Below are positions 2,807-21,287 of a stretch of 64,000 nucleotides of DNA, piece after piece. Location of the stretch: contig JAWAKK010000001.1 of the NCBI GenBank assembly GCA_038887515.1, positions 1 to 64,000 on the forward strand, in the 5' to 3' direction. The notes beneath the pieces were generated by a model, which saw nothing but the letters and a program-made list of their open reading frames with translations, did no database searches and was not told the origin of the DNA. Every line of letters starts with the position of its first letter. The first letter of the stretch is position 1. A program made the position numbers and the translations under genes. Source of the stretch: Candidatus Nezhaarchaeales archaeon (GTDB lineage Archaea > Thermoproteota > Methanomethylicia > Nezhaarchaeales > WYZ-LMO8).

Positions 2807-3456
2807 GCTCTCGCCCAATCCTTAACCGACTTAAAAGCCAGTGTGCCCCGAAGAGCTTCGAGAGTTGCCCTTGCCGTGTTCTCCTTAGTTCGAGATTCGC
2901 CTTTACTAAAAGTCCACACATCCTTTACTCCTGCAAGCCTTAGCACTATTTTAGCCGTATCGCCCGCTACAAGACCAGTTCCTCTAGGTGCTGGTAATAG
3001 CGTTACCTCTACGCTACCAGCCTTACCCCAAACTCTTACCGGTATGCTGTGGGGTCTGCCACATCTGCACTCCCAACTTCCACAACCAAGTCTAACGGGG
3101 ATTATGTTCAACTTGGCCTCAGCTATAGCTTTGTCTATTGCTTCCCTCATTTGCCTTGCTTTAGCACTACCTAGTCCAACATAACCAGCCTCGTTACCTA
3201 TAGCTATCACTACCTTAAACCTCGAAGACTCGCCAGCGTACGGCCGCCTAGTAGCCTACTAGGCGGTGTCCGTCTGCCTTTGAACTATCTTTACGTCAAT
3301 GACTTCGTGCTTTAGGTTTGGCAGTAAAGCATCTACTATTTCTGGCTCTTTTATCACTAAGTTGTTGGCAAATATTTCGTCTATGCTTGTTATCTTGCCC
3401 TCTTTTACTAATCTTCCTACATACGTTGTTGGAGACCATACATCAAGTGAAGACAT
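2803..3456 (-). CDS. rps5: 30S ribosomal protein uS5, two exons: join(3456..3268, 3237..2803), 207 aa after splicing
   Basis: The N-half ([16 protein letters not shown]...VQRQTD) and C-half ([15 protein letters not shown]...[16 protein letters not shown]) are in the same frame, separated by a 30-nt insert containing TAG TAG. Confidence 0.93.
3238..3267 (-). other. BHB-type mRNA intron (30 nt) in rps5
   Basis: Sense strand CAG-ACGG-AC|A-CCGCCTAGTAG-G-CTACTAGGCGG-CCGT-AC|G-CTG: 4-bp helix ACGG/CCGT, two 3-nt bulges, CAG/CTG exon stem. Confidence 0.9.
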
Positions 3457-9144: not shown

Positions 9145-9333
9145 CTAAATTCACAACCCGTTAAGCTCTAAATTCTCACTACCACTAAAACTGTTGAGCT
9201 TTACGCTACAAATTTACAAAATAGATTAAGTCGCCAAATCCTCCCTTGATAGAACTTTAGTAGTCGATTGCGCGAGGAACCTAAAAGACTCGCCTTCGTA
9301 AATACGCGATTTAATTATTTAAGAGTAAAGAAT

Positions 9334-9429
9334 TGGTGCGGCCGCCGGGATTTGAACCCGGGTCCCCAGCACTCTTCGAGGATGTCTCTTGGAAGGCTGG
9401 TGTCCTAGTCCAGGCTAGACGACGGCCGC
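9334..9429 (-). tRNA. tRNA-Gly(TCC) with an 18-nt canonical 37/38 intron (9372..9389); CCA encoded
   Basis: GCGGCCG acceptor stem, GGTTCAAATCC T-loop. BHB: CCAGC-CTTC-CA|A-GAG ACATC CTC-GAAG-AG|T-GCTGG. Confidence 0.95.
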
Positions 9430-9567
9430 TTCTCGTTTTATTGGGTACTCGAGTATATTTTTATTTTCGGGCTCAACCTAATGCCTCCTAATCATTGCGC
9501 GCGCTCATTTTAACTCTGACATTTCATCGCCCATCTTCTAATTTTTGTAGCGCCCAATAAACATTTG

Positions 9568-10638
9568 CTAGTCGGTTCCTAAGATTTTAGGTATGTTCTC
9601 CCCGTAGGGCGACCTTATGATTCCCTTCTCGGTTATTATTGCAGTTATAAGGTCTGGAGGGGTTACGTCAAACGCTGGGTTTAAAACCTTAACGTCTATC
9701 GTAATCGGTTTCCCATTCACTTCTAAGATCTCTTTTGGATCTCTATGCTCTATGATTATATCTTCAACCCTAGACTTCAAGTCGAAAGTCGAAGAAGGTG
9801 CTGCTACATAAAAAGGCACCGAGTACTTATTGGCTACTATCGCTATAGTTAGAGTCCCTATCTTATTTATTACATGCCCGTCTTTCAGCACTCTATCGGC
9901 TCCGACTATGACTTTGTTTATCATGCCTTGGCTCATGACGTAACCAACCATGTTATCGGTTATCAATGTTACGTCGATGCCGTCGCACTTAAGTTCATAG
10001 ACCGTTAGCTTTGCCCCTTGAAGTCTCGGTCTAGTCTCCGTCGCTATTACCCTAACCTTCTTGCCTTGAGCTACGGCGCTCCTAATGACTCCTAGAGCAG
10101 TACCATAACCGACTGTGGCCAAAGCCCCCGCAATCTACCAGCTGAGCCTTTAGCTCAGCTGTTTGCAGTGGGTTAATAATACGTCGCCATCTTCTACGAG
10201 CTCCGCACCAATATCACCGATCCTTTTATTGACTTGAAAGTCCTCTTCAGCCATCTTGAGTGCCTCTCTTAAAGCAAGTTTCTTAGCTTCCTCGATGTCC
10301 TTGGCTTTCTCTACCACTCCTATCATTCGTTCAATAGCCCAAAATAGGTTTCTAGCGGTAGGCCTAGCCCTAGAAAGGGTCTCTGCTGCAACTCTTAGAT
10401 CACTTAAAAGCCCTTCTAAACTTTCTGCGCTAGAGTGCATAGCTGCCAGCGCAATCCCCATAGCGGCGGCAACGCCTATTGCTGGTGCCCCCCTAACGGT
10501 CATGTCCTTTATCGCTCTAACAATCTCTTCGATGTTCCTACACTCTACGTATCTCTTTTCCCATGGTAAAGCGTTTTGATCTAAAAGCCTAACAACACCG
10601 TCGCGCCACTCAACACTTCTAGCTTCAAAGAAGGTCAC
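9568..10638 (-). CDS. mtnA: Methylthioribose-1-phosphate isomerase (eIF2B-alpha-like), two exons: join(10638..10163, 10132..9568), about 346 aa
   Basis: [28 protein letters not shown]+[21 protein letters not shown] and NPAFDVTP motifs. The halves are in frame, separated by a 30-nt insert containing TAA. GTG start inferred from an upstream GGGTGG. Confidence 0.9.
10133..10162 (-). other. BHB-type mRNA intron (30 nt) in mtnA
   Basis: Sense strand CTGC-AA|A-CAGCTGAGC-TAAAG-GCTCAGCTG-GTAG-AT|T-GCG: helix CTGC/GTAG with one G-U pair and a 9-bp intron stem. Excision gives TGC AAT GCG (C-N-A). Confidence 0.88.
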
Positions 10639-10739
10639 GAGGAACCACCCGATCAACTGTTAAGCATAACAATTTTAAAAGTCAATCCGTCTCTAGCCCT
10701 CAAGATTTTTAAAGCCCTATCAACCAGACAACAATAAAG

Positions 10740-10857
10740 GCGGGGGTGCCCGAGTCAGGACAAAGGGGCGGGACTTAAGATCTCCGCTGTTTGAGGCCGG
10801 AAGTGGTAAGAAATCCCGTGGCGTAGGCCTTCGTGGGTTCAAATCCCACCCCCCGCA
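10740..10857 (+). tRNA. tRNA-Leu(TAA) with a 33-nt canonical 37/38 intron (10780..10812)
   Basis: GCGGGGG acceptor stem, long variable arm, GGTTCAAATCC. BHB: CGGGA-CTTA-AG|A...TAAG-AA|A-TCCCG. Confidence 0.93.
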
Positions 10858-11219
10858 CTATTTGCTAGTAAAACTTACATGGACTTTCACTTTTGCTCTT
10901 CATTAATTATATAAGTCGGTCGTAGATGTAAGGAAAATCATAATTGTACTTACATGTAACCTTCATATTGTAAGATATTTCGAAGAATTGCTGTAATAAT
11001 TTTCTTTTCCTTGAAGCGTTTTCCTTCAATTCGCACATAACTTTGCTGTCTTCTCTCCTTTTGTGTTTCGTTTAACTTTCCTTTAGATTCCATGATGCTT
11101 GCGCGTTACGCCCGATTAAATGAAGTTAAAAGATACATGGTGTTCTGCGCTTCTCCACAAAGTTTTCTTTTAAAGGTTTCCTCTTTATTATATTCCAATA
11201 TTTGTTGGCGTGGTTGAAA

Positions 11220-20962: not shown

Positions 20963-21287
20963 GGGCACGGCGGGTAGGCCCGGGGGGCTCGGCCTCCCCT
21001 GTAACCGCAAACGGCCGATATGGCGGGGGCAGCAACCCCGACAAGCGGCTTTAGGAAGTCCGAGCCCCCTGGCTCTAAACTATGAGGTCCCGCCCCATGG
21101 AGACGCTGTAGGGGATAGCTCCCCCGTAGGGGGGATACGAATCTCCTTGCCGACCGAACCAGGTTAGGCCCGGGAGGGAGCGGCCTTAAGGTCGGGCAGC
21201 GTCGTTCATGGGTTAACGGGGCTGAGGAAAAGAGCCAGATGCGAGCTCGGACCGACCTAAGCCCATTGTCGGGGGGCCGCCGTGCCC
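20963..21287 (+). ncRNA. ffs: Archaeal SRP (7S) RNA
   Basis: GC-rich island with complementary ends GGGCACGGCGG/CCGCCGTGCCC, Alu-domain TGTAACC, helix 6 CCCCC-GTAG-GGGGG and helix 8 AGGCCCGGGAGGGAGCGGCC. Confidence 0.93.

Follow-up and report, generated by a model that had tools for sequence, protein, structure and literature searches.

How a single enzyme can be made from two adjacent open reading frames (ORFs) is the question raised by a locus in the 64,000-nucleotide stretch of DNA analysed here, hereafter the window (positions 1 to 64,000 of the forward strand of contig JAWAKK010000001.1, assembly GCA_038887515.1, of a Candidatus Nezhaarchaeales archaeon). The two ORFs, at positions 10150-10656 and 9568-10122 of the minus strand, are the N- and C-terminal parts of one protein of the MtnA/IF-2B family, and the break between them coincides with a 30-nt insert at 10133-10162. 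From the anatomy of this insert and its conservation among relatives, we propose that it is very probably an archaeal endonuclease-type intron, of the bulge-helix-bulge (BHB) class, lying in the coding sequence of mtnA.

The minus-strand DNA across the insert reads CAC TGC AA/A CAGCTGAGC TAAAG GCTCAGCTG GTAG AT/T GCG GGG GCT TTG (slashes mark the boundaries of the insert), exactly as an initial annotation of this DNA had written it, together with the extent of the insert. Two stops (TAA and TAG) lie inside the insert in the exon-1 frame, and the unspliced upstream ORF ends with THCKQLS followed by a stop, which the same annotation had noted. Aligned to six intron-less orthologues, the locus has KQLSXRLSWXI (X, stop codon) where the orthologues have one Asn, and removal of the insert in silico gives exactly THCNAGALAT. 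The alignment thereby bears out three further proposals of the annotation, namely that splicing would restore this motif, that the intron sits in phase 2 of the Asn codon, and that the insertion relative to MtnA orthologues is exactly 30 nt, or 10 codons, in place of one Asn. Likewise, alignments to two MtnA-like chains in the PDB contain a 10-residue gap exactly at the insert. The intron had also been placed right after the catalytic Cys. Its position stands, and the Cys preceding the interrupted Asn codon is invariant in 9 of 9 aligned sequences. We take the Cys of THCN to be the catalytic residue of MtnA, and no usable literature reference for it turned up in the searches.

The assignment to MtnA could be examined on the read-through protein. 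Written with X for each stop, this stretch of 363 codons aligns with positions 2-279 of the 280-position PF01008 profile (E 2e-90; 303 bits against a cut-off of 22.4). It also scores 426.5 bits against NCBIfam PRK05720 (cut-off 271) and 384.6 bits against TIGR00512, salvage_mtnA (cut-off 279), while its scores against the archaeal equivalogs PRK06036 and PRK05772 are below their cut-offs. The best PDB chains for the product are 1t5o (E 1e-107) and 1t9k (E 4e-104). By these profile and structure matches, the gene is a member of the MtnA/eIF-2B-related isomerase family, in agreement with the family named at the outset.

The proposed RNA motif comprises a 4-bp central helix, two 3-nt bulges on opposite strands and an intron hairpin. 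The bulges AAA and AUU flank the central helix CUGC/GUAG, which includes one G-U pair, and this arrangement of two 3-nt bulges on opposite strands with a 4-bp helix between them is that of a relaxed BHB motif. The intron hairpin consists of nine Watson-Crick pairs and one G-U pair. The 70-nt stretch around the insert (10113-10182, minus strand) is more stable than 200 of 200 shuffled sequences, with a z of -3.55. Pairing was counted in an alignment of 13 sequences (11 of them distinct) from f1, the family of the window's genome. For the BHB structure, 97.2% of cells are paired, and sliding the partners by 1-3 columns lowers this to 17-46%. The central helix, for which the annotated pairing of CUGC with GUAG holds throughout, is paired in 100% of cells across the 11 distinct sequences, and the intron hairpin, which closes the 5' bulge, in 96%. 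In addition, two hairpin pairs change on both sides, at columns 23-40 (UA/UG/CG) and 26-38 (GC/GU/AU). The 9-bp intron stem of the initial annotation thus stands with a G-U pair added, but the minimum-energy fold, discussed below, lacks the central helix next to it.

This architecture suggests how the transcript would be processed. In the pre-mRNA, CUGC, made up of the Cys codon and the base before it, which ends the His codon, would pair with GUAG close to the intron's 3' end, the remaining intron would fold into a hairpin of 9-10 bp, and AAA and AUU would bulge out on opposite strands. The host EndA, composed of alpha and beta subunits, would cut after the second base of each bulge, and RtcB would join ...UGC AA to U GCG..., giving the predicted junction ...CACUGCAA/UGCGGGG..., an Asn codon and a continuous MtnA frame of the 352-residue class. 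The excised 30-nt intron would be released, probably as a circle, and unspliced mRNA would yield only a 168-residue N-terminal fragment ending THCKQLS. When such cuts after the second base of each bulge are made in silico, a functional junction with the Asn codon and the frame restored is obtained in 28 of 28 carriers. We infer the cleavage, the ligation and the fate of the intron from what the sequences themselves display: the anatomy of the site, its conservation and covariation, the selection on the exons and the presence of the enzymes.

Within f1, the insert is found in all nine genomes that hold mtnA, including that of the window (G000); the tenth (G004, 75% complete) gave no mtnA match. 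The insert is 27 nt long in G005 and G006, 29 nt in G007, 30 nt in G000, G001 and G009, 31 nt in G003 and G008, and 32 nt in G002, so that the two halves of mtnA lie in different frames in several of these genomes. On four metagenome contigs the insert is 31 nt long, and its hairpin contains a compensatory C-G pair. The insert is absent from mtnA in five genomes of the order's other two families, and the internal 'stops' suspected in mtnA of G011 and G012 proved to be merely terminal stop codons. A search of genome contigs for related loci recovered only distant, mostly bacterial relatives that are intron-less.

Beyond the order, a phylum sample of 401 genomes was searched, 392 of which contain the protein. 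At least 28 of the 401 have an insert at the Asn codon of THCN (nine in f1, seven in f17, eight in f18, two in f28 and one each in f45 and f59), a lower bound beside which several other genomes have split or weak matches. At least 19 carriers therefore belong to five families other than f1, with inserts of 19-34 nt. A degenerate pattern for the interrupted site matched 30 genomes, compared to 4 for a backward-read control; 25 of the 30 matches lie in mtnA, and three carriers missed by the pattern (G383, G140 and G298) were found by inspection. The five pattern matches outside mtnA (G334, G236, G054, G191 and G190), similar in number to the 4 of the control, were set aside, as was a split match in G104 that is due to contig ends.

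The motif is preserved across these carriers. Of the 28, 26 were parsed by script, and their inserts measure 19-32 nt. All 26 form the four pairs of the central helix, from exon CUGC or CUGU and intron GCAG, GUAG, GCGG or GUGG, and all have a hairpin of 3-10 bp directly next to the 5' bulge. The AA of the 5' bulge is invariant across carriers, and a T or C opens exon 2 in each of the 28, so that AA + Y always encodes Asn. Moreover, the codon preceding the Cys ends in C in all 28 intron-bearing genes, compared to 8 of 22 intron-less orthologues of the class, as expected if this base must close the central helix.

The lengths and boundaries of the inserts also bear on translational recoding, in which ribosomes, hopping over the insert as in phage T4 gene 60 or reading through it, would translate unspliced mRNA into a single protein. 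A stable hairpin directly after the take-off region and some inserts divisible by three (27 and 30 nt) would suit such a process. However, each lineage would need a hop of its own, given insert lengths of 19, 22, 23, 25, 29, 31 and 32 nt and between one and three stops, and the take-off and landing codons are not conserved as a matching set. The Asn codon is built from both sides of the insert, which is explained only by cutting and joining of the RNA, and the same geometry is present in cbf5, for which splicing has been shown experimentally in other archaea (available text of PMC2738675). Since the insert lengths cover every residue class modulo three and the Asn codon draws on both sides, recoding or hopping cannot explain the insert, and we consider it highly improbable.

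Selection was estimated separately for the two exons of mtnA. Where dS was computable, comparison with family members gave a dN/dS of 0.10-0.15 for exon 1 and 0.03-0.06 for exon 2, values for which dS is saturated; judged by these ratios, both exons are under strong purifying selection. A palindromic insertion that inactivated mtnA and left a decaying pseudogene, or else an error of assembly, would account for the in-frame stops, and the genome is a draft of 9 contigs with 94% completeness. Yet 28 genomes assembled independently of one another contain the insert, as do four metagenome contigs, the dN/dS of the two halves stays within 0.03-0.15 despite the saturated dS, and neither half contains any further disruption. 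Purifying selection on both exons argues that mtnA is not a pseudogene, and the recurrence in independent assemblies excludes an assembly artefact, so that this explanation is scarcely credible.

The two halves might also be expressed as they stand, the insert dividing mtnA permanently and the products (~165 aa and ~185 aa) assembling without RNA splicing. Both halves are indeed open frames under purifying selection, a TTG lies three codons into exon 2 in the window's genome, and public databases list the halves as separate predicted proteins. Searched against ~5.8 billion predicted proteins, the N-terminal half gave 3194 matches of 92-294 aa. Among its best 120 clusters, 102 end at most 40 residues past THC without NAG, mostly with THCK followed by a stop or a few residues; many of these proteins lie on long contigs and are thus not truncations at contig ends. 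The source labels of the clusters include Candidatus Nezhaarchaeota archaeon WYZ-LMO7, Nitrososphaerales archaeon and Candidatus Caldarchaeum sp., and one Nezhaarchaeota-labelled protein is identical at 160 of 162 residues to the exon-1 frame of G005, a member of the window's genus. Nevertheless, no conserved start codon for a separate C-terminal half was found in 21 genomes: the first start codon in the exon-2 frame falls anywhere from codon -23 to +60, and in 15 of the 21 its use would delete at least 14 conserved residues. The codons from the 3' boundary to any start (AGALAT...) are conserved as protein, with synonymous variation. In addition, the break lies inside the invariant THCN motif, the rebuilding of Asn by AA + Y in all 28 carriers is not required of a split gene, and the covarying BHB geometry would have no role in one. 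A permanently divided mtnA is, on this evidence, very unlikely.

The intron of mtnA has counterparts in the same genome. A strict genome-wide scan for the geometry joining open frames returned 14 matches, of which the three with the longest stems fall in mtnA, uS5 and aIF2-gamma, all of them conserved genes in which a conserved motif is restored. Strict matches such as C2:228868-228911 and C7:2144-2177 restored no recognisable protein and were treated as noise. All 10 f1 genomes carry the uS5 insert, 22-30 nt in length, and split matches at the same residue indicate it in all four f3 genomes as well, while neither f2 nor the 25 other genomes of the class with a uS5 match showed it. Its central helix ACGG/CCGU becomes ACAG/CUGU in G005 and G006, a compensatory change between exon and intron. 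In aIF2-gamma, the two exons match positions 3-96 and 97-411 of the PRK04000 profile, and the predicted spliced protein reads ...DCPGHE/MLMATML.... This insert occurs in 10 of 10 f1 genomes with a length of 31-35 nt, and the gene is uninterrupted in 30 other genomes with a match (frames of 413-439 aa).

A further insert, in cbf5, lies within the catalytic Asp codon, between its first letter and its second, which is the boundary given for cbf5 introns in the available text of PMC2738675. Within the class, cbf5 is interrupted at the catalytic Asp in f1, f2, f3, f4, f7 and f8 and continuous in f5 and f6; the cases in f1-f4, f7 and f8, as read from these genes, widen the range of the cbf5 intron past the orders that the 2009 paper lists. 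All four introns lie inside invariant motifs (MtnA THC/N, Cbf5 GGTL-D, aIF2-gamma DCPGHE/M and uS5 QRQTD/AG) and start with A in the window's genome, perhaps because the exon strand of the helix must not change, or through ascertainment. As a separate matter, the small contigs C5-C9 (6.6-12 kb), C8 and C9 in particular, look much richer in G+C than C1-C3 in the scan outputs and may come from another organism.

Several results weigh against a BHB intron in mtnA. In the minimum-energy fold, exon CUGCAA pairs with exon UUGCGG, without the central helix. At 37 °C the BHB conformer has -19.4 kcal/mol, compared to -27.9 kcal/mol for this competing fold (a gap of 8.5), and at 75 °C the values are -5.85 and -10.26 kcal/mol (a gap of 4.4). 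Within the family, 89.9% of cells retain the competing exon-exon pairs, for the most part where the coding positions do not vary. The changes in the central helix are one-sided only (e.g. G-C to G-U), with no fully compensatory change in mtnA. Moreover, the outer exon-exon helix that continues from the 3' bulge is paired in only 34.5% of cells, on which ground the canonical hBHBh' form was rejected for this intron. The motif is therefore a relaxed one of the bulge-helix-loop (BHL) kind, the geometry that had been annotated from the beginning, and without an outer exon helix the predicted cleavage of mtnA would depend on an enzyme of relaxed specificity.

A search for sequencing runs listed no RNA run containing this stretch. 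Aligned to positions 9300-10900, three metatranscriptome runs that share a study with a DNA run containing it gave 0 reads on mtnA and only tRNA-like fragments from other organisms, the organism itself not being covered. A loose genome-wide scan for BHB geometry found 2014 matches compared to 1870 in a control with non-physical pairing, that is, no enrichment; a second BHB scan gave 24 compared to 22, and a mirrored geometry, with the central helix between the intron and the 3' exon, 203 compared to 194. Because BHB geometry is no commoner than in the control, the case for the mtnA intron rests on conservation, for which genomes within one family are not independent observations. Since the looser and mirrored scans showed no excess, only the four introns described above are claimed for this genome.

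The competing fold also lends itself to a reading in which the intron is real but spliced conditionally, such that the activity of EndA and RtcB would gate the production of MtnA, uS5, aIF2-gamma and Cbf5, by analogy with HAC1/XBP1. Because the competing fold is both more stable than the BHB conformer and conserved, it may act as a structural switch. The intron has been kept across deep lineages, and the four genes that carry such introns serve translation, RNA modification and salvage. However, the alternative helix consists mostly of invariant coding positions and may be conserved merely because its codons are; cbf5, in addition, is without a known regulatory role in the available text of PMC7714728. 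Regulation of this kind is in our view unlikely.

Endonucleases able to cut relaxed motifs are of the (alpha-beta)2 type with a Crenarchaea-specific loop, or of the epsilon2 type. The genome contains two EndA-family genes, encoding proteins of 191 aa and 178 aa. The 191-aa protein is closest to 3p1z_B, 3ajv_B and 2zyz_B (E 1e-46 to 1e-48), the alpha chains of heterotetrameric crenarchaeal EndAs, and its K46 and K48 align without gaps to K44 and R46 of the Crenarchaea-specific loop. These chains are the catalytic subunits of the Aeropyrum and Pyrobaculum heterotetramers. For the Aeropyrum enzyme this assignment is confirmed, and the Crenarchaea-specific loop, K44 especially, confers relaxed cleavage of BHL motifs, according to the portion of PMC3241643 available; the role of the loop is also described in PMC5829648. 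The 178-aa protein is a candidate beta subunit through a weak match to 3p1z_A (E 2.5e-4). By sequence, the genome thus encodes a two-subunit EndA with a Crenarchaea-type loop, and the broad-specificity endonuclease predicted from the relaxed motif has a candidate in it. RtcB (PF01139) is present as well, in an ORF of 492 aa (E 5.2e-181).

With introns allowed, ARAGORN reports 46 tRNA genes in this genome, 18 of them with introns. Two of the intron-containing tRNA genes flank mtnA (Table 1), and the tRNA-Leu gene was missed by ARAGORN when run without the intron option and by Rfam at the gathering score. At gathering thresholds, the Rfam scan of the window gave six matches, all of them tRNA or signal recognition particle (SRP) RNA and none group I or group II. 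A self-splicing group I or group II intron was accordingly discarded for the mtnA insert, which is only 30 nt long. The archaeal SRP RNA (RF01857, 168.6 bits) lies at 20968-21282 of the window, on the plus strand, and fits an archaeal origin of this DNA.

Table 1. Coordinates of mtnA and its predicted intron, of the other predicted introns and of neighbouring features (positions refer to the window unless a contig or locus is named)
Feature	Position	Strand	Remarks
mtnA exon 1	10163..10656	minus	ends ...ACC CAC TGC AA; Pfam and NCBIfam matches span both exons
mtnA start codon, two options	TTG at 10656, or GTG at 10638		GTG by alignment to an orthologue beginning MTFFE
mtnA intron (predicted)	10133..10162	minus	30 nt: A, hairpin CAGCUGAGC-UAAAG-GCUCAGCUG, GUAG, AU
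Central helix, exon strand	10165..10168	minus	CUGC, last His-codon base plus Cys codon; partner is intron GUAG
Central helix, intron strand	10135..10138	minus	GUAG; in relatives GCAG, GCGG or GUGG
5' bulge AAA	10162..10164	minus	predicted cut between 10163 and 10162, after the second bulge base
3' bulge AUU	10132..10134	minus	predicted cut between 10133 and 10132; U at 10132 completes AAU (Asn)
mtnA exon 2	9568..10132	minus	U + GCG GGG GCU...; stop codon at 9568-9570
Carrier loci in other families of the phylum	L145, L159, L169, L181-L209		some match proteins labelled Caldarchaeum or Nitrososphaerales
uS5 intron (predicted)	3238..3267	minus	30 nt; removal restores a protein with the QRQTD/AG motif; read-through matches uS5 models
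aIF2-gamma intron (predicted)	contig 2, 24144-24175; locus L108, 1145-1176	plus	32 nt, directly after DCPGHE
cbf5 intron (predicted)	contig 2, 333915-333935; locus L109	plus	21 nt, 4-bp hairpin
tRNA-Gly(UCC)	9334..9429	minus	18-nt intron; directly downstream of mtnA; ARAGORN with introns; Rfam tRNA match 9337-9429
tRNA-Leu(UAA)	10740..10858	plus	33-nt intron; upstream of mtnA, opposite strand; ARAGORN with introns

The history of the mtnA intron was approached through a quick tree of MtnA, with SH-aLRT support and no bootstrap. It comprises 58 rows, 23 intron-bearing and 35 intron-less, and leaves out the intron-bearing G006, G083, G139, G360 and G140 and the intron-less loci L022 and L151-L157. 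The intron-bearing genes are not monophyletic in this tree: those of f17 stand apart, and the intron-less genes of f2+f3 and of f24 nest among carriers. The tree is therefore compatible with a single origin followed by losses and with repeated gains alike, and the intron may descend from one ancient gain with several losses or may have been gained repeatedly at a favoured site. The introns of f1 and f28 are alike (ACAGCU...AGCUGGCAGA), and the others share mainly the bases required by the helix. Because the identical site is used in at least six families of the phylum, the lineages of which include those labelled Nezhaarchaeota, Caldarchaeum and Nitrososphaerales, the intron would be either old or recurrent.

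The cbf5 pre-mRNA intron of Crenarchaeota was reportedly described by Watanabe in 2002. For other Crenarchaeota, the available text of PMC2738675 (Yokobori 2009) demonstrates the splicing of cbf5 introns by cDNA and endonuclease assays, places the cuts after the second base of each bulge, and treats introns in other protein genes as predicted but, as of that year, unconfirmed. Later sources add little to this list in the portions available: besides its own intron in a 5' untranslated region (5'-UTR), PMC7714728 (2020) reports only the BHB intron of cbf5 mRNA; PMC10485636 (a 2023 review) names cbf5 and one 5'-UTR case, with more probably to be found; and PMC12397907 (2025) cites only cbf5 papers for pre-mRNA. 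The pre-mRNA citations of PMC5829648 (2018) are likewise cbf5 papers only. No report of an mtnA, uS5 or aIF2-gamma intron was found in the literature searched, the coverage of which excludes subscription journals and supplements. Comparative evidence supports mtnA as a new host gene for a known element, the archaeal endonuclease-spliced pre-mRNA intron.

The putative mtnA intron closely resembles that of cbf5. Both are short (19-39 nt in the literature for cbf5, 19-34 nt for mtnA), lie in coding sequence at an active-site codon, and have an 'unconventional' BHB in which each bulge is cut behind its second base, a prediction in the case of mtnA. They also share the link to a hetero-oligomeric EndA, a patchy distribution and lengths that are often not multiples of three. 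By contrast, the host gene of one encodes an RNA-modifying enzyme and that of the other a metabolic isomerase, and the lineages of the mtnA intron are those labelled Nezhaarchaeota or Caldarchaeum and other families of the phylum. Furthermore, the cbf5 intron has been proven by cDNA and cleavage, whereas that of mtnA is predicted from sequence.

Another relative is the 5'-UTR intron of HVO_1309 from Haloferax volcanii, likewise a BHB element of an mRNA cut by the tRNA splicing endonuclease. Compared to the mtnA intron, it lies in the 5' UTR and interrupts no codon, has a canonical motif, and belongs to a euryarchaeon with a homodimeric enzyme (available portions of PMC7714728 and PMC10485636). 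The BHB and BHL introns of archaeal pre-tRNAs and pre-rRNAs follow the same motif logic and are presumably processed by the same enzymes, whereas the mtnA substrate is an mRNA, and its codons restrict the helix's exon strand. As the tRNA body is absent from mtnA mRNA, recognition would have to rest on the local motif alone. In eukaryotes, HAC1/XBP1 mRNA is spliced through cuts by IRE1 and ligation by RtcB or Trl1. Such unconventional splicing is also mentioned in PMC13149111. This process resembles the one proposed for mtnA in that a short mRNA intron is excised at stem-loops independently of the spliceosome, the ends are joined by a tRNA ligase, and the reading frame changes, but it employs IRE1 rather than EndA and is regulated by stress.

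Since 2002, cbf5 has been the only archaeal coding sequence described with an endonuclease-type intron. The mtnA intron, if spliced as proposed, would add a second host gene with strong comparative support, and uS5 and aIF2-gamma, both core translation genes, a third and a fourth. At present, public databases list each half of mtnA as a protein in its own right, often a 'hypothetical' one, and metabolic reconstructions can therefore miss MtnA. Similarly, uS5 and aIF2-gamma can appear truncated to marker-gene sets, with consequences for estimates of completeness and for the phylogenomics of these lineages. The relaxed recognition of mRNA by EndA, and the gain, retention and loss of such introns, become testable. 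A broader view, possible though doubtful, is that mRNA splicing by the tRNA-splicing machinery is a regular part of gene expression in much of Thermoproteota, the introns being ancient, retained and possibly subject to control of the HAC1/XBP1 kind. If this is true, the introns might couple the production of translation and salvage enzymes to the activity of EndA and RtcB, as an archaeal counterpart of HAC1/XBP1.

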